From an uncultured virus (IMG/VR IMGVR_UViG_3300035698_035306) (Duplodnaviria; Heunggongvirae; Uroviricota; Caudoviricetes): DNA of 64,000 nt. The DNA lies in the IMG/VR virus record IMGVR_UViG_3300035698_035306. One strand, written 5' to 3'. A model generated the notes under the pieces. It did no database searches. It was not told where the DNA came from and worked only from the letters and a program-made list of their open reading frames with translations. A program made the translations under genes and the position numbers. Positions 1,357 through 33,755 of this stretch are shown here, one piece after another (positions within the stretch are counted from its first letter, which is position 1; every line of letters starts with the position of its first letter).

Positions 1357-1392
1357 CGATATGCTTTTGTTTTTATTATATATCGACAATAG

Positions 1393-1464
1393 TGGCCTGT
1401 ATCGGATTCGAACCGATAACCACTGGTTTTAGAGACCAGCGTTCTACCATTGAACTAACAAGCC
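1393..1464 (-). tRNA. amber suppressor tRNA (anticodon CTA), Trp-like body
   Basis: Cloverleaf with CTGGT-CTCTAAA-ACCAG; D and anticodon arms nearly identical to tRNA-Trp at 30988. Confidence 0.9.
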
Positions 1465-5323: not shown

Positions 5324-6496
5324 TTATAAAGGTTTGTAGTCTATCATACGTTTAACTATGTCAATAGTTTCAGCGTTTCCAGTATGCTTTCCAGGTATGT
5401 CAGAAAGTTTAATTACATTCTCTTTATTAATCTTAAATAGTTTAATTACCATGTTAAGTGCTTTAACTCCAGGGAAATCATTCGTGTAGTTTGTTCCTAT
5501 ACCAAATGAACAGCCAATTCGACCATCGACGTAGTCTTGAATTTCTAATGCTGTAGTTGGATTTAAACCATCAGAGAAAACAATTGTCTTTGATTTTGGG
5601 TCAATTCCAAGTGATTCGTAGTGTGCAATTATCTTATCAGTAAATACTTTTGCATCTCCTGAGTCGTGGCGTACACCATCAAACAACTTAGCGTATTTCA
5701 TATCGAAGTCATTTAAGAATGTGTCTAGACCAAATGTGTCTGTCAATGCTATACCTAAATTTCCTTTATATGTTTCAACCCAAAGTTCTAATGCATGTTT
5801 ATTAGCGTGAGCATAACCAAGTACAGCAGCTACTCCTGATACCCATTCGTGAGCGAATGTTCCAATTGCTTTTGTATTATGATTGATTGCCATTTCAACG
5901 TTTGAAGAACCAATGAATGATTTTCCACCGTAGTTTTTAGCTATTCCAACTACTCTATCGTGGTTGGTGTATGAATAACGTCTACGTGTACCGAAGTCAA
6001 CGTTGGCAAGGTTATGCATATTAAAGTTTGAGAATTTCTTTTGGTCAAGGCCTTCTATGTAACCGATAGATTCTTTTGGCTCAATACCGTTTATCTTAAA
6101 GAATATCTCAGATATCTCAGACATCAGAATAACTTCCCAAAGTATAGTTCTGTACCAGTAACCTTGTATAATTATCTTTAATTCACCTTCATCTTCTTCA
6201 ATGATTATAACTTCAGAAGGATTAAATTTATATCCTGCTAGAAAATCGAAGAACATATTAGGTAAGAATGGGCATTTCACTTGGAATGCTTCTCGCTCCT
6301 CTCTTGACAGTGTAATTTCCCCAAATGTGTCAATACGTTTTCTTAATTCGTCAGCAACTCCAGACATGTCACGTGTCTTATCTCTTAAAACAAACTCATA
6401 TCTAACCTTTGCATCAGGGAAGTGTTGCATTACTGCCCACATCATAGTGAATTTATAAAGGTCGTTGTCTAAGATACTTCTCTTTTTTAAGTTCAT
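5324..6496 (-). CDS. pncB: nicotinate phosphoribosyltransferase
   Basis: DNDLYKFTM, DFGTRRR, GTFAHEW, GVRHDSGD, FSDGL, FGIGT, KLSD-PGK. Confidence 0.96.
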   Translation of the reverse strand: MNLKKRSILDNDLYKFTMMWAVMQHFPDAKVRYEFVLRDKTRDMSGVADELRKRIDTFGEITLSREEREAFQVKCPFLPNMFFDFLAGYKFNPSEVIIIEEDEGELKIIIQGYWYRTILWEVILMSEISEIFFKINGIEPKESIGYIEGLDQKKFSNFNMHNLANVDFGTRRRYSYTNHDRVVGIAKNYGGKSFIGSSNVEMAINHNTKAIGTFAHEWVSGVAAVLGYAHANKHALELWVETYKGNLGIALTDTFGLDTFLNDFDMKYAKLFDGVRHDSGDAKVFTDKIIAHYESLGIDPKSKTIVFSDGLNPTTALEIQDYVDGRIGCSFGIGTNYTNDFPGVKALNMVIKLFKINKENVIKLSDIPGKHTGNAETIDIVKRMIDYKPL

Positions 6497-11237: not shown

Positions 11238-11361
11238 ATACTACTAAAAGTTGTTTGTGACTGTGTTCAAGACAGTTGCCTAACCACTTGGCTATCTACG
11301 CTATTAGCGTGGAATTGGATTCGAACCAATGTTACTAGATTTTAGTTATTCTAAGTAGTAT
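11238..11361 (-). ncRNA. Y-RNA-like ncRNA: ACUUAGAA stem enclosing a circularly permuted tRNA (T arm, looped acceptor stem, D arm, anticodon arm)
   Basis: ATACTACTTAGAATAACTAAAA...ATTGGTTCGAATCCAAT TCCACGC-TAATA-GCGTAGA TAGCCAAGTGGTTAGGC ACTGT-CTTGAAC-ACAGT...TTTTAGTAGTAT. Confidence 0.75.
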
Positions 11362-13140: not shown

Positions 13141-13208
13141 AATTTCACTAATAGTTAACGTGTCAAATTAAAAGTTTGGTGTTTGTTTTTAGTTTTCTAA
13201 GTGAAATT
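13141..13208 (-). ncRNA. ACUUAGAA-stem ncRNA
   Basis: AATTTCACTTAGAAAACTAA...TTAGTGAAATT. Confidence 0.7.
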
Positions 13209-13299: not shown

Positions 13300-13337
13300 A
13301 TTATTAGTTATCAATATTTTAAAGAACTTGTTTTAGT

Positions 13338-13683: not shown

Positions 13684-13780
13684 TGTGTTTATTATTATCG
13701 TTGTTTATATATTGTTGTTTGTTTGATTGTTCTATACTAAAGTAAGCATTTGTTTCGCAATACCAAAGTTTATTTCTGAT

Positions 13781-16376: not shown

Positions 16377-18305
16377 TTAAGCTATTACAGAGTAACGCTT
16401 GTCATCGTAAATACTCCAAAGTTCATCTTCTGGGTTTACACTTCCTGTCTTAATTCCGCGAAGAATTTGAGAAAGTACACCTTCACTGAAGCCGCTTACT
16501 AATAGAATATTTGGTATACCTTTAATTTGCTGTGCAAATGAATCAGGTAGTCTTTGAATACCCCAGAACACCATAAGTGGGTTCCATCCGATACTGTATG
16601 CAAGTTCAAGGGCCTCCTTTGGAGACTTACCTGTATTGTTTTCCATATCAGTAATGTAAAGTAATGCGTTTGGTAAATCTTCAACATGCATCTTATTGTC
16701 TTTCACTAATTTTACAAAGTGTTGGATTGAAGCGAACATATTTGTTGAACTAATATCACCTGGGTTTGAACGAGTTATGCTTTCAAAGTTCTCAGTAAAA
16801 GTTTTCTTTTCACTTAATATGTTATAAGCATTCACCTTCTTAGTATAAGCGTTAGCTGCAACATAAGAGTTTGGTGCTTCATTTACATATTTAGACTTAC
16901 CAATAATTTTGAAGTCTGAACTGAACCAGCCGAAAGTATTTCTAAATTCTTGAACTGGGTTTCTTGTACTGAACACAATTGCTAATGATGCTGCTACTTG
17001 CCAGCATGTTAAATGACTAAATTTATTATCAGCTACGCTTGAGTTACCCCAATAGCTTCTGGTAATACTTGAACTCATTGAACCACTACCATCAATGATT
17101 GGGAATACGTTCGCAACAAGGTCCATCTTTTCAATCATAGATTGGTAAGTGTTGTTAACCATTTGCTTAGTAGTATTTCCTTTAAGCATACTTGACATTA
17201 AATCTACAGTCTGTACTCCTGTTGACTTAACTTTGAATTGCTTCATTAATTTCTCCTTAGCTTCTACGTCATCGTTAGATGCAGCTTCTCTAAGTTGGTC
17301 GGCAATATTTTCTTGACCATTTTCCCATTCAATGAAGTAATTACCAAGTTCTCCCCATTTCTCTTTCGCAACTAACTTGTCATCATCTTTGAAACATACT
17401 GTCTTAGACACCATGAATCTTTGACCAGTTGTAAGTTTGTTAAGGAACTCAATGAAGTCAGACTTAGCCATAGTTAAAACTGACTTAGAACTGATAGCTT
17501 GTTCAGCTGTATCTTGTAGTTTTCTAAAGTTCTTGTATTGTTCAACAGACCAATCCATTCTCTTACAGAATCCTAAAATCCAAGTGTTAACTAATTTTTG
17601 CTTGTCAAGTGTAATAGTTTGCTTATCTCTTGGGTAAGAAACTACATCACCAGTCTTCACTGTAATCTTTTCTGTACCATTTTTAACAAGTACGCCATTA
17701 AGCTTTACCCAAGCTTTACCTTCAGGTAATGTCCATTTGAAAGAATCAACATCTTTTCTTGACTTAATCACTTTCTTAGTAGTTCTAGACTTGCCAGACA
17801 TGTACTTAGGTAAGTGCTTCGCAATAAGGTTTACATTCTTTCCTGCTAGAATTTGACTAGCTAAGTAGTCATATACTACAGCTTCATTAGGAAACAGAAC
17901 TTCTGTCTTAATAAGCTTACCAGTATTTCTATCAGTAGTGTTTTGATAAAACATAAGGTTGTCAAGAACTGTAAATTCTACGATAGCTCTAATGTTTCTT
18001 GCAAAACTTTCTGGCATTTTAGTACTCCACCATCTTAAGATACTTCTAAAAGTCTCTCTTTCTTGGGCACCACCCGTTGGTGATTTAATACCAAGTTCAT
18101 CAAGTAAGTTGTGTTGTCTACTGATGTCTCCAACGTGTAGCATCACTCTTTCAAGCATGTTTACCATTTCATTCTTATTACATTCCACAAATGACTTGTT
18201 AAGCATTGCGTGAATATCTCTATCATTACCACCTTTGGTGGTTCTAAGAGCTTGTAACACAGTTAATGTTACTGGAAATTCTTTTCTGTTTGTTTCGTTT
18301 TTCAT
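16377..18305 (-). CDS. DUF2828/TROVE(Ro60)-like helical + vWA domain protein
   Basis: GGAQERETFR (DUF2828-type GGxGERxxFR), AKHLPK, vWA MIDAS IDGSGSM, STN, ITDME, FW, VSGFS. Confidence 0.72.
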   Translation of the reverse strand: MKNETNRKEFPVTLTVLQALRTTKGGNDRDIHAMLNKSFVECNKNEMVNMLERVMLHVGDISRQHNLLDELGIKSPTGGAQERETFRSILRWWSTKMPESFARNIRAIVEFTVLDNLMFYQNTTDRNTGKLIKTEVLFPNEAVVYDYLASQILAGKNVNLIAKHLPKYMSGKSRTTKKVIKSRKDVDSFKWTLPEGKAWVKLNGVLVKNGTEKITVKTGDVVSYPRDKQTITLDKQKLVNTWILGFCKRMDWSVEQYKNFRKLQDTAEQAISSKSVLTMAKSDFIEFLNKLTTGQRFMVSKTVCFKDDDKLVAKEKWGELGNYFIEWENGQENIADQLREAASNDDVEAKEKLMKQFKVKSTGVQTVDLMSSMLKGNTTKQMVNNTYQSMIEKMDLVANVFPIIDGSGSMSSSITRSYWGNSSVADNKFSHLTCWQVAASLAIVFSTRNPVQEFRNTFGWFSSDFKIIGKSKYVNEAPNSYVAANAYTKKVNAYNILSEKKTFTENFESITRSNPGDISSTNMFASIQHFVKLVKDNKMHVEDLPNALLYITDMENNTGKSPKEALELAYSIGWNPLMVFWGIQRLPDSFAQQIKGIPNILLVSGFSEGVLSQILRGIKTGSVNPEDELWSIYDDKRYSVIA

Positions 18306-18320
18306 TGTCTTTAAATTTTA

Positions 18321-18429
18321 ATCTAACTAAAAAATTTTAATGCCGGGATTGAACCAGCGACCTTTTTGTGATTAGCAAAATGCTCTACCAACTGAGCGAA
18401 TTAAATTGTTTAGTTGTTCTAAGTTAGAT
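18321..18429 (-). ncRNA. Y-RNA-like ncRNA: ACUUAGAA stem extending a tRNA-like cloverleaf
   Basis: ATCTAACTTAGAACAACTAAA..GCTCAGTTGGTAGAGC..TTTTG-CTAATCA-CAAAA..GCTGGTTCAATCCCGGC..TTTAGTTAGAT. Confidence 0.75.
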
Positions 18430-19616: not shown

Positions 19617-19691
19617 TAGTCTCTAACGGATTCGAACCGTTGACTTCCTCGGTGTAAACGAGGTGCTCTGAACCAACTGAGCTAAGAGACT
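19617..19691 (-). tRNA. tRNA-Val(TAC)
   Basis: Loop TTTACAC. Confidence 0.92.
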
Positions 19692-19711
19692 ATTTGTAAT
19701 TGTATAAACCT

Positions 19712-19748
19712 AAAAAAATCCAATCGGCTATTTGCTGACTGGATTTTA
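19712..19748 (-). terminator. attenuator terminator 3
   Basis: AAAATCCAGTCAGC-AAATA-GCCGATTGGA+T7. Confidence 0.85.
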
Positions 19749-19797
19749 AAATTTCTTTGGGTTCTATATGTTGATAAAAAACTTTCTTAAATCCAAT

Positions 19798-19884
19798 CTA
19801 TGCGCAAATAATACTTTCCACTACGATGACAGCTACTGTTTCAGTAGAGCGTATAGGGACGATATTTTTTAAATTGCGTTGCAT
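19798..19884 (-). promoter_or_regulatory. leader peptide 3 MQRNLKNIVPIRSTETVAVIVVESIICA
   Basis: V/I-rich; GATTGGATTT antiterminator overlapping the stop codon. Confidence 0.85.
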
Positions 19885-19938
19885 TGAATTTGTCTGTTTT
19901 TTAGTGGACAACTTATATATCCGTGATAAAATAATAAA

Positions 19939-19993
19939 ATCTAACTAAAATGTTTTTTCCAATAAAAAGTATTTTTAGTGTTCTAAGTTAGAT
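19939..19993 (-). ncRNA. minimal ACUUAGAA-stem ncRNA
   Basis: ATCTAACTTAGAACACTAAAA...TTTTAGTTAGAT. Confidence 0.7.
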
Positions 19994-20040
19994 AGCTGAA
20001 TATCAAAATACCTTTCACAGTATATGATATTAAAATTAAA

Positions 20041-21010
20041 AACTTGAGACTACAGTTTTTATAGTATTGCTTTCGATGCCTGTACCAGTTCGATGCGACT
20101 CTCACTGTTGGGGACTTGTCCACTTTCCTGAAGGAAAGATACAATACCGACGCTTCCTTTTTTTAAGTGCTGGCTGTTGCACTGTCATAATGAGCGTACT
20201 CAACGTTTCTTCTCGGGTTAGACTTTTACATCTATGCATCGTCGCTAAACGATTACCTCTGTGTCTACATTAAACATTTCCACCTTGCGAGTTTCCATGT
20301 TCTTCATTGTACCGAAGTACTGAAGATTTAAGCGACTTTTACTCTCATTACCGAATGAGTCTTTGCATATAATTTTAAAGTAATGCCCGTTTGACGGGGC
20401 GACCTCTTGATTAATAGTCAAGTGCTCTTCTCTGAGCTAAATACAAAGTATTTCCATTGTTGAGCGCTCATTCAGAGCATCGTTTCCTTTTGAGAAACAA
20501 TATACACAACTCAACGTGCATTTCGGCTTGCGGCCTACTGTACGATATTTCACGTTTTCAGGTTTACTTTGGAGAAAAAACCTTTCTGCGTTTATAATTC
20601 TATATAGCCTTATGCTTGCGGCATCAGACAGTATAAATACTCCTTGTCAATTCGAATTTCGTTAAGTTGGCATAGTTAGTAATATAGTCGCCAAACTAAA
20701 TTAGAAATGCTCCTTACCTCAAGAGAGGGGCTTACATTTCATATCCTTACCAAAGGACTACTAACTCTTAACTTACATCTTTTCTCCAACTTTTGAGATT
20801 GAAGCTTACCGTTTGGTTCGGTAAATGATGAAGCTTGCTTGAATAAACCATTTCTGGCAGAGGGCTATGGAGCTCCTCTCTTTTACATCTTGCGATGTAT
20901 TATTAATTTCCAAATGACGAATCATTCAACGTAAAGAACAAGTCTAAACGTCTGGTCCGAAGACTAAGACTTTTACTCCGAAGAGTAAAACCGATTCAAG
21001 CATCGGTAAA
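20041..21010 (-). ncRNA. large structured ncRNA (~1 kb), GOLLD-like, with an embedded tRNA-like domain (~20380-20445)
   Basis: No credible ORF; higher GC; many UUCG/GCAA tetraloop hairpins on the minus strand; own promoter and boxA; lies among tRNA genes. Confidence 0.65.
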
Positions 21011-21112
21011 ATTTTTCTAATATTTTAAAGAACGTGTGTTATAATTTTCTAAGATAAAAGTACAACATTTTTTCGCAATAAAAAAGTTTATTTTGAAAAA
21101 GTTAAAAATTTA

Positions 21113-21201
21113 ATTCTACTAAATTTAAAATTTATGATACGCCAGCTGGCCACCGTAGTGGACAGAGCGTTTTTTAATTTTTTAGTGATTCTAAGTAGAA
21201 T
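21113..21201 (-). ncRNA. ACUUAGAA-stem ncRNA with a GC-rich apical domain
   Basis: ATTCTACTTAGAATCACTAAA...TTTAGTAGAAT. Confidence 0.7.
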
Positions 21202-21207
21202 ACTTTG

Positions 21208-21280
21208 TAGCGGGACTCGGACTCGAACCGAGGACCTCCAGGTTATGAGCCTGGCGAGCTGCCGCTGCTACCACCCCGCA
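21208..21280 (-). tRNA. tRNA-fMet(CAT)
   Basis: Initiator-type GTAGCAG..AGCTCG D arm, unpaired 1:72, loop CTCATAA. Confidence 0.85.
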
Positions 21281-21748: not shown

Positions 21749-21820
21749 GGTTATCCTGAGAGGACTTTAACCTCTGACCTGTCTTTCGACTGCTCTTGCG
21801 CAATTCTGAGCTACAGGATA
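21749..21820 (-). ncRNA. tRNA mimic with a GTC-GAAA-GAC mini-hairpin instead of the anticodon arm
   Basis: TATCCTG/CAGGATA acceptor; D and T arms present. Confidence 0.65.
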
Positions 21821-21906
21821 ATGTTTTTTCAATAATTTAAAGAACTATGTTATAAATTTCTAAGATAAAAGTACAACATTTAATCGCAATAAAAAAGTTT
21901 ATTTTG

Positions 21907-22312: not shown

Positions 22313-22346
22313 TGTTTTTTCAATAATTTAAAGAACTTATTATTTG

Positions 22347-22418
22347 CGGAGAAGATTGGACTCGAACCAACGACGCACGGTGTTCAAACCGCTGCTCTAC
22401 CAACTGAGCTACCTCTCC
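22347..22418 (-). tRNA. atypical tRNA with a 6-nt anticodon loop (TTGAAC)
   Basis: Canonical D and T arms; GCGGT/ACCGT stem. Confidence 0.6.
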
Positions 22419-22768
22419 TGTCCCCTTAACATCTCATTAATTGTCAAAGCGTCGACTCAAATCTAATTAATCGCTGCAGCTACGAGCATTGGGGCATTTT
22501 TTCTAGGCAGTATGGTTAACTTTTACAATTTCGTGACACTAAGTCGAAACCGAAATGTTACCTATTATTCTGAATTGGCATGTATCGTTTTATACTCGAC
22601 CGTGGTACGCAATTAGCGCCTCACTAATATTGCCTTAAAGCAATCAACATCTACTAAATGTTATCAGAATTTCAATATTTTAAAGAACTTGTTGTTTTAA
22701 TGTTCGATACTAAAGTACCAAATATAATTGACAACCCAAAGTTTATTTGTAAAAAAACTTTATAAAAA

Positions 22769-26186: not shown

Positions 26187-27161
26187 TTAAGTTAGTTCCA
26201 GGATTAACTTTACAGCCTTATCGAATCTCTCATCCCAGTTGCCAGATATGGTTTTGTAGTCAATACCTGCATCTTCTAGTTCTCTTATATGATAATCCTT
26301 TAATTTGTTTCTATCTTCTTCAGTCAGTCTAGAACCATCTTGAATGTGAGGTACATCGTTATCTAAGAATAAGTACAAATCATAGTTGTTATAATCATCT
26401 ACAAATTGAGGATATTTAAGTTCTTTATTAAATAGGAATTTCGAATAAGACTTCGTTATATTGATGTCAGTATCTACAATCATAATCTTATTAGAATAAT
26501 TATCATTGAAAAATACTCTCAGTGCATGTGCTTTTGCAATCTTTTCTAAGTCTTCATACTTAACATCATAAACGCCGTCTGTTAATTCTCGGCCCATTTC
26601 ACCGACATAATAGCCTGCGAAATGTTCTGTAAGTCTCTTAGCTAAAGTGGTTTTACCAGTCGATTCTGTCCCGACTACACAAATCTTCTTGTAATAATAT
26701 TTCTGAACTGGGTCAGGTATTTTATCCCAATTAATATACGGATTTTCTCTAATCATTGTAGCTGATACTGGAAGAGTAGTTCTTTCGATATCATAGTTAA
26801 TACATTCAATGCCCATAAAATCTGCAAGATACTGTCCGTATTCTTCAGATGATATGATAACATCTAAGTCGAAGTTGTAACTTAATATCTTATCAGCCCA
26901 TTTTTTTGTAGCTTCTTCATCAGGAACTGATGATGATGTTAGATTATTTTTATTGTAAGACATATAATTAATATGTACTTTAACATCATTTCCAAATACA
27001 TCATCTAGAAATTCAATTCTTGTCAGAGCATTTATATGTTCATCTTGTTCTGCACACAATAATAGAATTACTTGGTCACATTGTGTTTTTGCAAATTCAA
27101 CCATTGCAATATGCCCATTATGTAATGGCATAAATTTACCTAATACTAGTCCTCTTTTCAT
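26187..27161 (-). CDS. nadR: NadR-type NMN adenylyltransferase / nicotinamide riboside kinase
   Basis: GKFMPLHNGH, SATMIR, GTESTGKTT, DTD, QDGSR. Confidence 0.92.
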   Translation of the reverse strand: MKRGLVLGKFMPLHNGHIAMVEFAKTQCDQVILLLCAEQDEHINALTRIEFLDDVFGNDVKVHINYMSYNKNNLTSSSVPDEEATKKWADKILSYNFDLDVIISSEEYGQYLADFMGIECINYDIERTTLPVSATMIRENPYINWDKIPDPVQKYYYKKICVVGTESTGKTTLAKRLTEHFAGYYVGEMGRELTDGVYDVKYEDLEKIAKAHALRVFFNDNYSNKIMIVDTDINITKSYSKFLFNKELKYPQFVDDYNNYDLYLFLDNDVPHIQDGSRLTEEDRNKLKDYHIRELEDAGIDYKTISGNWDERFDKAVKLILELT

Positions 27162-27783
27162 TTTTCAAAAATTTAATCCATGTTATTAATCCTGATGTAG
27201 CTAACATTGAGAATAAGAAATATTCTACTGACATAAATAAAATACCCTTTAATATGTAGAGTACAATACAAACGATGTCAACTGATATCCATAAAACCCA
27301 AGTTTCAATTTTCTTTTGAGCCATTAAAACAACTGCTATTATACTTGCAGTAGTTGTAAATGCATCGAAATATGGGTAAGCAGCTGGCTGACTGAAGAAC
27401 TGTGGTAGCATCTCATGTATGTGTGACATATAACTTCCTATAAATATCGTCCCAGCTGTGACTAAAAATAGCACTAGAGTAATTTGATTCTTATCTAATC
27501 TACTTATAGTTTTCTTTGCATCTTTTTTACTCCAATTTATCCAACCGTATATTCCTATAATTATAAACCAGACTTGTAGAAACATGTCGGAATACAAATT
27601 TACTTGATAAAATAGAATTAAGAATGCAGCTGCATTAATAATACCAATTGGCCAAGTCAGAACATTAGCCCTGACACTGTACCAAACACATATCAGACCA
27701 GTAATAGTTCCGATAAGTTCTATTAAGCTGACCTGATATCCAAGTACTTCAAATAATACGTTATGAATACTTATAATGTCCAT
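27136..27783 (-). CDS. pnuC: PnuC nicotinamide riboside transporter
   Basis: WPIGI, YGWINW, DAFTT, KKIETWVLWISVD; multiple TM segments. Confidence 0.92.
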   Translation of the reverse strand: MDIISIHNVLFEVLGYQVSLIELIGTITGLICVWYSVRANVLTWPIGIINAAAFLILFYQVNLYSDMFLQVWFIIIGIYGWINWSKKDAKKTISRLDKNQITLVLFLVTAGTIFIGSYMSHIHEMLPQFFSQPAAYPYFDAFTTTASIIAVVLMAQKKIETWVLWISVDIVCIVLYILKGILFMSVEYFLFSMLATSGLITWIKFLKNEKRTSIR

Positions 27784-29789
27784 TTAAGTGATATGTAAAA
27801 GTTTGTTGGAGCTTGAACGAAATATCTTGCATCTCCATATACGTTTAAGTGACCATGAGAATAATATTTCTGATTAGTCAAATTATTTCCTCTTACTGTT
27901 ATGTCAAATTGGTGAAATTTATAACCAACAGCTGCATTGATTGTATAAAATTCTGGAAGTTCTAAATCATTACCAAAATCTAAATAAGACTTACTTTGAT
28001 ATCTTGCATTGAAACATAGATATAAATTCTTATATTTGTAATAGAAGTCTTGATTAACAATTATTGCTGGAGTTAGAATAGGTTCAAATTGTACACCATC
28101 TTCTGTAATACGATTCATCGAGAATGATGAGTTATTACGTACTCCAAATCTTTTAGTTAAATCATATTGAACATCTAATTCAATACCACTCTTAGTACTT
28201 TCAGCTACGTTACTATGTAATGCAATTCCATTTGGGCCGAATTGACCATTAAGTGCTATTTCATTCTCAAATTGCATATGATATAAGTTAGCAAATATAT
28301 GACCTTTCTTTGCAAAGTATCTATAACCAAGTTCGTGGTCGAGTACTTCTTCTGGTACGATGTTACTATAGATACCGTTACCTAAGCTATCACTCATTAA
28401 GTTATCTTCACCATAGAATATATCAGTACGTGATGGTTCTCGTGATGTAGTTCCTATACTGTAGTAGAAAGTATTCTTACCCATTTTGTATTGTAAACCT
28501 GCATGTGGTGTAATAAAGTCCCATTGCATTTTGTCCATTGTAGCATCACCTTCATATGAAAATTCAGCATGTCTATAACTAACATCTGCAAAAAATACTA
28601 AGCCTTTAATATCATAAGTTGCTTTAGCGAATCCACTGTATTCATTTTTAGTTCCAGTATTAGTATACAGTTCACCGATTTTAGCTTCTGAACCTAAGTG
28701 AGTTCTTTGAAACGTATTACCATGTATTCCTGTATAGAATTTAAAAGCTTTATTAGTATATGAATAATTTACAAAAGCTCCAACAAAGTTATGTACTAAG
28801 TTATAATTATAGACTGCACTGTCGATAGCACCTTCTGGTAATTCTAAGAAAGCATTCAAATCAAAATCATAATTTCCTTGAAGGTGATTATAATAGACTG
28901 TGCTTGAAAGTTTTGACTTATCAGATATAAAGTATGTATGTTGTAACTTAACTAAGCTCTGTAAGAAATTATCTTTCTCATTTTCGAAATTTGTATTATA
29001 TCGCGGGTTAGCTTTAAGTGAATCCATTGGACTTCCTAGCCATACCATATCATTTTTCTGATGTCCTATAAAACCTGTAAGCTTTAAAAGGTGTTTGTTC
29101 TTTACATATCCAGTACTGAATAGAACAGAACGTGAGTCATTTCCTGAATGTTCTTTATAACCATCAGTATGTATGTTTGAACCTCTTATATAGAACCCAA
29201 AGTTCTTTCTTTTACCGCTGTAATATTCTACATACTCTCGATGTGTATTATAAGAACCGTAGTCAATTCCAACTTGTAATGATGTATCTCCAAATAAGAG
29301 CGGGGATTGAAAGTTAATACTTCCTCCGTAACTTGCAACACCATTTGAAGATGTTCCAATACCTCTTTGTATTTGAATAGAACTTACTGAATTTATAAAA
29401 TCTGGATAGTTATTAAAGTAGACTCCCTGGTCTTCACCTTCATTAAGCGGAACGCCATCCCATGTCATGTTAATTCTGGTCTGGTCTATACCTCTTAAAC
29501 GGAAGTATGAATAACCTACCATATTCCCAGCATCTGAATAACTGTTTACACTTGGAGTTTGATTTAAAAGGAATGCAGGTTCCTGACCAACACTCTTTTC
29601 GTTTAACTCTTTAGCGTCAATATTCTTGTACGTGATTGGAGTACTCTTATTAGCTCGATAGAATGTTATTACGCATTCTTCTAATAACACGGCATCTGTT
29701 GAATCAGGAACCGCAGTAGTGTCTGTTTGCGCGAAACTCAACGTCGCTGCAAATAATAGACTAAATAATAGTAATGTGAATTTCTTCAT
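27771..29789 (-). CDS. TonB-dependent outer-membrane receptor
   Basis: Signal peptide; plug RLRGIDQTRIN...SIQIQRG...GGSINF; beta-barrel with NNLTNQKY and C-terminal W-T-L. Confidence 0.92.
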   Translation of the reverse strand: MKKFTLLLFSLLFAATLSFAQTDTTAVPDSTDAVLLEECVITFYRANKSTPITYKNIDAKELNEKSVGQEPAFLLNQTPSVNSYSDAGNMVGYSYFRLRGIDQTRINMTWDGVPLNEGEDQGVYFNNYPDFINSVSSIQIQRGIGTSSNGVASYGGSINFQSPLLFGDTSLQVGIDYGSYNTHREYVEYYSGKRKNFGFYIRGSNIHTDGYKEHSGNDSRSVLFSTGYVKNKHLLKLTGFIGHQKNDMVWLGSPMDSLKANPRYNTNFENEKDNFLQSLVKLQHTYFISDKSKLSSTVYYNHLQGNYDFDLNAFLELPEGAIDSAVYNYNLVHNFVGAFVNYSYTNKAFKFYTGIHGNTFQRTHLGSEAKIGELYTNTGTKNEYSGFAKATYDIKGLVFFADVSYRHAEFSYEGDATMDKMQWDFITPHAGLQYKMGKNTFYYSIGTTSREPSRTDIFYGEDNLMSDSLGNGIYSNIVPEEVLDHELGYRYFAKKGHIFANLYHMQFENEIALNGQFGPNGIALHSNVAESTKSGIELDVQYDLTKRFGVRNNSSFSMNRITEDGVQFEPILTPAIIVNQDFYYKYKNLYLCFNARYQSKSYLDFGNDLELPEFYTINAAVGYKFHQFDITVRGNNLTNQKYYSHGHLNVYGDARYFVQAPTNFYISLKWTL

Positions 29790-33444: not shown

Positions 33445-33500
33445 TTATATATTGTTGTTTGTTTGATTGTTCTATACTAAAGTAAGATAAAGTTTCGCAA
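33445..33500 (-). promoter_or_regulatory. tandem promoter cassette TTGCGA-N-TACTTTAGTATAG followed by ATATA(T)A; also at ~12250-12303, 13706-13760, 25620-25672, 32110-32163
   Basis: Near-identical sequence upstream of five of the six leaders. Confidence 0.75.
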
Positions 33501-33755
33501 TTACAAAGCTTTTTCTTCTTCTATTTCACATAGAGTATGTAAAGCGCTTTCTAGGCTTACAACTACATCGTAAAGTTTTTTATTGGGTTTTATACTATAA
33601 TTCTTAATTAAATCTGTATAGACAGTATTTAACTTTTTATTCTTTGAACCGGCTATTAAATGCGGCTGTGGTTTTAAATTAAAATCAAATGTCTTCTTCT
33701 GCTTCATTTCTAACTTAGGTACCCAATCTGTGCTACCCGATACGTTATCATCCAT
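33501..33755 (-). CDS. hypothetical protein
   Basis: ORF track. Confidence 0.55.
   Translation of the reverse strand: MDDNVSGSTDWVPKLEMKQKKTFDFNLKPQPHLIAGSKNKKLNTVYTDLIKNYSIKPNKKLYDVVVSLESALHTLCEIEEEKAL

Follow-up and report, generated by a model that had tools for sequence, protein, structure and literature searches.

A divergent GOLLD RNA with a decayed tRNA in its linker, from the tRNA array of a large salt-lake phage

The closest described system to the locus presented here is the GOLLD RNA of env-38, which has been solved as a 14-mer nanocage with the linker in its interior (Kretsch et al., Nature 2025, PMC12286853). According to that work, phage tRNA islands are the home of GOLLD RNAs and their linker sometimes contains a tRNA (Kretsch et al. 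2025, PMC12286853, 10.1101/2024.12.08.627333). A GOLLD gene in a Mycobacterium tRNA cluster holds a pseudo-tRNA, the expression of which was not detected (PMC6582537). Since a linker tRNA, a location in tRNA islands and cage assembly have all been published before, the present locus opens no new question; what it contributes is a divergent GOLLD RNA encoded by a large phage of salt lakes.

The window, i.e. the whole stretch of 64,000 nucleotides of uncultured viral DNA that was analysed, carries a structured RNA gene of ~990 nt at about 21033..20041 (minus strand) that is devoid of any long ORF. A preliminary description, made from the sequence by eye, had called the interval 20041-21010 ORF-free, and indeed the largest ORF that overlaps it in any frame comprises 68 aa; the neighbouring genes encode 150-670 aa. 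The same description had placed the locus in a phage tRNA region, which fits with the ~45 tRNA genes (43 calls by ARAGORN, 46 by Rfam) that surround it between 1.4 and 33.3 kb, all on the same strand. tRNA-Met genes adjoin the locus, and the proteins encoded next to it match phage families. Our preferred reading, which we consider very probable, is that about 21033..20041 (-) specifies one GOLLD RNA of ~990 nt, consisting of a leader, a 5' domain, a decayed tRNA borne on a stalk and a 3' domain, and that this RNA is likely to form a cage.

The membership of the GOLLD family is a matter of observation. In a cmscan search of 19690-21210 with E-value reporting (E up to 10), the Rfam model RF02032 (GOLLD) matches 20515..20041 (-) with 129 bits and an E-value of 2.4e-35, over model positions 1-416 of 416 and without truncation. 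This part of the RNA holds the junction hairpin, the linker and the conserved 3' domain, and 8 of the 10 pairs of the pseudoknot marked by Rfam (the long-range pairing) are kept, as counted from the cmscan alignment. Nevertheless, the match lies 21 bits under the gathering score of RF02032 (129 against a curated score of 150 bits), so that Rfam's own annotation would skip it; at the gathering thresholds the whole window yields tRNAs only. The published survey of GOLLD used cmsearch at an E-value of 1e-5 (Kretsch et al. 2025, PMC12286853).

How the score is to be read follows from a calibration in which Rfam was run over 20 of the at least 117 viral GOLLD loci, the 117 being the matches listed for a pattern of three conserved GOLLD words. 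GOLLD matches were obtained for 18 of the 20 (L003 and L005 gave none), and 16 of these 18 score 167-225 bits. The remaining two, L010 (131 bits) and L061 (128.5 bits), are also under 150 and score about the same as the window; L041 and L055, with 181 bits each, are well above the cut-off. As three of the 19 scored matches (18 viral loci and the window) fall short of it, the 150-bit cut-off misses true GOLLD RNAs, and the window lies within the family, at its divergent margin, as an ordinary member. The earlier suggestion that the RNA might represent a new class finds no support.

Phage tRNA islands also harbour ROOL RNAs and introns, and with a cloverleaf present one might read the region as one of these (ROOL, group I or group II) or as a series of defunct tRNA genes. 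However, the comparison that had been proposed, namely Infernal against the Rfam models of GOLLD, ROOL and introns, leaves GOLLD as the only strong match: between 19690 and 21210 the ROOL and group I/II intron models give no match even at E-values up to 10, and there is one tRNA match inside the region. We attach practically no probability to this reading.

Directly upstream of the part covered by Rfam lies the GOLLD 5' domain (20516..20927, -), as delineated by nhmmer and profile matches and by covarying helices. With 21060..20516 as the query, nhmmer matched 10 viral loci directly upstream of their GOLLD 3' region (E < 1e-5), the top match of the window's 5' half being L010 (1e-13). A profile of 16 viral GOLLD 5' domains, constructed with the window excluded, has a single match in the 64 kb, at 20891..20516 (-), with an E-value of 8.8e-37 and 120.9 bits. 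Domains of this type were found in 41 of the 117 listed viral loci (42 of the 118 sequences searched, one of which is the window itself, while upstream DNA of 600 nt or more was available for 78 of the 118), and more than 250 profile positions are spanned by 31 of the matches. The proportion of 42 in 118 agrees with the lower conservation of the GOLLD 5' region relative to the rest that is stated in PMC12286853.

That lower conservation, together with the fact that the Rfam model ends at 20515, could also be taken to mean that two unrelated RNAs are juxtaposed, GOLLD being restricted to 20515..20041 and 21010..20516 encoding some other structured RNA. Such a partition is contradicted by the match of 20891..20516 to the profile of the upstream stretches of 16 other GOLLD loci (see above) and by the recurrence of the same 5'/3' geometry in other GOLLD loci; moreover, neither a promoter-like repeat nor a terminator-like site was observed where the two halves meet. 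It is therefore very improbable, and the domain layout as observed is that of a single GOLLD RNA.

The preliminary description had found the region to be rich in hairpins with UUCG and GCAA loops. Four of each could be located on the minus strand, the former at about 20990-20971, 20970-20950, 20925-20908 and 20326-20301, the latter at about 20899-20886, 20625-20612, 20536-20525 and 20292-20282; in addition, a GAAA loop is found near 20075 (-). Relatives with which such a fold could be compared are distant. No sequence with more than 80% identity over the full length was found in IMG/VR or among GenBank phages, a blastn search of 19950-21210 against 50,697 GenBank phage records gave zero matches, and the best blastn matches to the window among the 117 loci listed have 68-79% identity over 72-229 nt. 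As a consequence, the covariation rests on distant relatives.

When the window and 16 viral loci (17 sequences in all) are aligned with MAFFT, RNAalifold yields a consensus of 135 pairs, 109 of which show a compensatory change. With a 188-pair consensus, the proportion of cells that pair is 89.0%, and sliding the 3' partners lowers it to 35.5-41.9%; the covariation score amounts to 0.617 versus about 0.11, and none of 500 shuffles reaches the observed value of any measure. Covariation in homologs, on which the preliminary description had made its reading depend, is thus observed, with double-sided changes in 149 of the 188 pairs across the 17 sequences. Combined with the 129-bit match to RF02032 and the homologous 5' domain, it bears out the earlier notion of a GOLLD-like RNA in which a tRNA-like domain is embedded. 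Of the 188 consensus pairs, 138 (73%) form in the window itself, compared with 76-79% in the three loci closest to it and 86-99% in 12 of the 16 other loci. This 73% is a lower bound, because several helices that seem to be missing from the window do form as clear hairpins and are shifted by one column in the alignment; part of the shortfall may reflect real divergence. All core helices and the long-range pairing do occur in the window.

Two loops deserve separate mention. The first, in the 5' domain, is GAAA in most loci, whereas the window and the three loci nearest to it have UGGU on a longer stem; if this loop corresponds to the conserved L11a of PMC12286853, a mapping that we make tentatively, then the subgroup departs from L11a. 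The second, UUAGCG, is kept in the window, and its central GC would correspond to L21a, the palindromic kissing loop of the same paper, again as a tentative mapping.

One could argue on these grounds that the window, L010, L041 and L055 constitute a divergent GOLLD subclass, with a leader of its own, altered loops, and an oligomer or a job that differs from that of the env-38-type RNAs. The 5' leader motif and first hairpin (see below) are common to the four, as is a longer stem capped by a UGGN loop at the position of GAAA in other loci; the four fit the consensus pairs least well (73-79%), and the window and L010 fall below the Rfam cut-off. Yet L041 and L055 lie well over that cut-off with their 181 bits, the window has all core helices as well as the long-range pairing, and the loop tentatively mapped to L21a is retained, so we consider a separate subclass unlikely. 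The same verdict of unlikely applies to its fuller form, in which the subclass has its own leader and a remodelled cap loop and, in the window, still holds a useless tRNA on its stalk. Were it true, then what selection maintains would be an object of tRNA shape inside the cage, serving as cargo, decoy or scaffold, instead of a tRNA gene, and the geometry of the cage might differ from that of the env-38 14-mer. In what follows we retain the reading of a single, divergent but ordinary, GOLLD RNA.

The internal cloverleaf noted by eye proved to be real. RF00005 matches 20446..20377 (-) with 33.5 bits (cut-off 29), as the sole tRNA match inside the RNA region, and the module (20377..20446, -) has CUAUUAA as its anticodon loop. 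It is positioned in the linker, and linker and insert together are bracketed by a 9-bp stalk (20352..20474, -; 20474-20466 paired with 20361-20352), of which 9 of 9 pairs form in the window, 95.4% of the cells pair in the 17 sequences, and four pairs show double changes. The position of the insert is one that is observed repeatedly. ARAGORN finds a tRNA at the same place in the linker in 36 of the 117 listed viral GOLLD loci (32 of 108 distinct sequences), and these tRNAs start 142-166 nt before CTCGCAAGG, with the tRNA-like module of the window starting 155 nt before it. The linker tRNAs of viral GOLLD loci carry many different anticodons. Among the 36, three have stop-codon anticodons (cta, tta and tca, in L034, L061 and L072), and three others have irregular anticodon loops.

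The decay of the module in the window is observed in several of its parts. Its acceptor stem has 4 of 7 pairs (as read from the alignment and the sequence), its D loop (AGAGAA) lacks GG, its T loop (GUCAAAC) lacks UUC, CCA is not encoded, and ARAGORN makes no tRNA call at 20446..20377. A canonical tRNA has a 7-bp acceptor stem, GG in the D loop, UUC in the T loop and a call by a tRNA finder, and the module departs from this pattern on each count. In terms of score, the linker tRNAs of 13 relatives reach 47-69 bits versus 33.5 in the window. The anticodon loop CUAUUAA aligns with CUGUUAA of the tRNA-Asn(GUU) of L010, which gives an anticodon AUU versus GUU, and judged from this alignment the module, a decayed tRNA, was probably once a tRNA-Asn.

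Could it nonetheless be a working tRNA, which RNase P and RNase Z excise so as to leave two half-GOLLD RNAs? Its score does exceed the Rfam cut-off, covariation across relatives is seen in both the anticodon arm and the T arm, many of those relatives hold a well-scoring tRNA at the same place, and the solved cage has its 5' and 3' regions as separate domains (PMC12286853). The defects in the acceptor stem, the loops and the CCA end, the rejection by ARAGORN, and a score that is 14-35 bits below those of the tRNAs embedded in the 13 relatives all go against it. An anticodon AUU with A34 is, furthermore, unusual in bacteria and counts against a working tRNA. The internal pseudo-tRNA of Mycobacterium, whose expression went undetected (PMC6582537), points the same way. 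All in all a functional tRNA has a small probability here. Devoid of a sound acceptor stem and of the D- and T-loop motifs that form the elbow, the decayed tRNA of the preferred reading likely stays tethered, and would be neither cut out nor charged.

At the 5' side, the RNA is preceded by a promoter-like repeat (21022..21095, -) that contains TTGTAC, a 16-nt spacer and TATAAC. This repeat is ~75 nt in length and has 90% identity to 21906..21835, upstream of the tRNA at 21820; it is one of a family with some 8-9 members spread over the tRNA region between 12.2 and 33.5 kb (e.g. 13705-13774, 21023-21092, 21848-21906 and 33445-33514), the shared core of which reads, on the minus strand, ATTGCGAAA, 7-8 nt, TACTTT. 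A simple sigma-70 scan listed 15 sites versus 9.6 expected and the TTGTAC/TATAAC pair was not among them, so that the promoter reading rests on the repeat. On that basis we infer that the repeat at 21022..21095 would act as a phage promoter for GOLLD.

This repeat is followed by a conserved leader motif, GTTCTTTAAAATATTAGAAAA (GTTCTTTAAAWTATTGAAAAA), at 21013..21033 (-), which probably marks the 5' end of the RNA. It stands out by its recurrence: five copies are present on the minus strand of the window versus 0.02 expected (13307-13327, 21013-21033, 21825-21845, 22316-22336 and 22668-22688), upstream of tRNAs and of GOLLD, and the motif is also found at the 5' edge of GOLLD in the viral loci L010 and L041. 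It may act as a leader or mark a start site, or it may be a signal for processing. Together these elements lead us to infer a 5' end near 21033-21030, ~20 nt upstream of the right-hand edge given in the preliminary description. The leader continues with a first hairpin, predicted by folding at 20990..21007 (-; ACCGAU-GCUUGA-AUCGGU), whose stem pairing is preserved in L041 by double changes (AGCUAU/AUAGCU) and which has a similar counterpart in L010. It is followed by a lineage-specific insertion of ~60 nt with two predicted UUCG-capped hairpins (20928..20989, -), which is not present at this place in L041, L055 or L010. The 151-nt leader alone folds no better than its shuffles (z -1.47).

At the 3' side, the GOLLD family model ends at 20041. 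Some distance beyond it, the minimum-energy fold of 20045..19695 (z -2.97) contains a terminator-like hairpin followed by U7 (19712..19745, -), which was not listed on the minus strand by a simple terminator scan and which is a possible end of the transcription unit, as judged from the predicted fold. The 330 nt between GOLLD and tRNA-Val (19712-19990, -) fold better than 100 of 100 shuffles (z -2.97), and no Rfam family matches 19712-19990; this stretch may be a small RNA of its own or a long 3' trailer.

Short contigs from sediment metatranscriptomes (two runs) match parts of 20130-20905 with 80-99% likeness, for example one of 158 nt over 20465-20619 with 2 differences. These RNA-library contigs are derived from relatives, are short and strandless, and may stem from DNA carry-over, so they cannot show ends or true transcription; their coverage of 19650-20097 and 20938-21200 is zero, and this absence says nothing about the transcript ends. 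They offer a weak hint that relatives of this GOLLD RNA are present in RNA pools.

The preliminary description had the RNA flanked by two ACUUAGAA RNAs. The underlying motifs do exist, as ACTTAGAA is found at 21189-21196 and at 19981-19988 (both -), the second copy lying 52 nt past the GOLLD 3' end, whereas their status as separate RNAs finds no support, in that cmscan of these flanks gave no RNA family with E < 0.3. In the window as a whole ACTTAGAA has 10 copies (8 on the minus strand) versus 4.9 by chance, and 3 of 100 shuffles reach 10, which makes the eight letters by themselves weakly significant. The extended form ACTTAGAA-NN-ACTAAAAA is located 7-12 nt past tRNA 3' ends (21189-21196, 13195-13202, 11349-11356 and 18417-18424, all -), and since the copy at 18424 is only 17 nt before the next tRNA, it argues for a 3'-end or processing signal and against a promoter.

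With respect to the phage and its setting, DNA of the locus is present in several salt-lake metagenome runs, and the DNA contigs of two other salt-lake runs are identical to the window wherever they cover it, so that they add no variation. In one DNA contig (run X2), 21260 is connected back to 21037 with an intervening stretch of 499 other nucleotides; the contig is a structural variant of the region 21037-21260, which contains tRNA-Met and the promoter repeat, in a related population. The genes around the tRNA array (26187-27161, 5324-6496, 1477-2607 and 16377-18305, all -) include a set for NAD salvage (NadR-like and nicotinamide phosphoribosyltransferase-like) and an RNA ligase, and a 642-aa protein near the array matches the PHROG family 'RNA-binding protein'. 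The NadR-like protein has 42% identity to one encoded by the 735-kb uncultured phage LR756501, which gives the best protein match; a search of that phage with RF02032 gave no match, a result of little weight as the search's own control was equally silent. Neither the 642-aa nor the NadR-like protein, used as queries, recovered a related phage contig from IMG/VR, and tblastn of the 642-aa protein against phages gave zero matches. A TonB-dependent receptor is encoded at 27771-29789 (-; Pfam Plug 1.4e-10, beta-barrel 3.3e-24), and its presence in a phage hints at a Gram-negative host.

Two members of the tRNA array are out of the ordinary. The tRNA at 1392-1464 (-) has the anticodon CUA, labelled 'Pyl' by ARAGORN, and is of the amber-suppressor type; when TAG is read as Gln a few ORFs lengthen, but 0 PHROG matches span a TAG, so that recoding is unsupported. 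For the tRNA at 22346-22418 (-) ARAGORN gives a two-base anticodon ('???', ga), and Rfam a score of 55.7 bits.

If the RNA behaves in the way that homology with env-38 would suggest, the following picture could be drawn. Transcription of the GOLLD RNA would be driven by its own phage promoter within the array of ~45 tRNAs of a large salt-lake phage. The RNA would then fold into separate 5' and 3' domains and, by homology, most likely assemble protein-free into a closed homomeric shell, in which the 5' domains would form the caps and the 3' domains the walls, with the linker and the tRNA-shaped piece pointing inward. The decayed tRNA would in that case remain tethered in the interior of the shell. 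The assembly of a cage is what we would expect from the solved relative, and the fate of the tRNA-like piece is what its decayed state suggests.

A comparison with the known systems sets the locus in perspective. With ROOL it shares the phage tRNA island and the character of a large RNA of ornate structure whose internal linker is disordered (PMC12286853), but the ROOL model gives no match at E-values up to 10, and both the sequence and the secondary structure of the window are those of GOLLD. The insert resembles a pseudo-tRNA, as does that of the Mycobacterium GOLLD RNA (PMC6582537). With the tRNA-bearing GOLLD linkers it has the location in common, the insert being at the identical place as in 36 of the 117 listed loci, yet it is more decayed than the tRNAs of the 13 scored relatives and reads AUU where the nearest relative has GUU; it is, as such, one more case of a retained but decayed linker tRNA, which suggests that the linker keeps the shape of a tRNA and not its function. 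The nearest relatives (L010, L041 and L055) are without the two UUCG hairpins of the window's leader, and the window has UGGU in place of the GAAA of most other loci. Finally, the locus corresponds to env-38 and GOLLD at large in its full-model 3' match, its homologous 5' domain, its variable linker, its length of more than 800 nt and its phage tRNA island, and differs in scoring 21 bits under the cut-off, in extending to ~990 nt and in having an extra 5' leader of ~100 nt.
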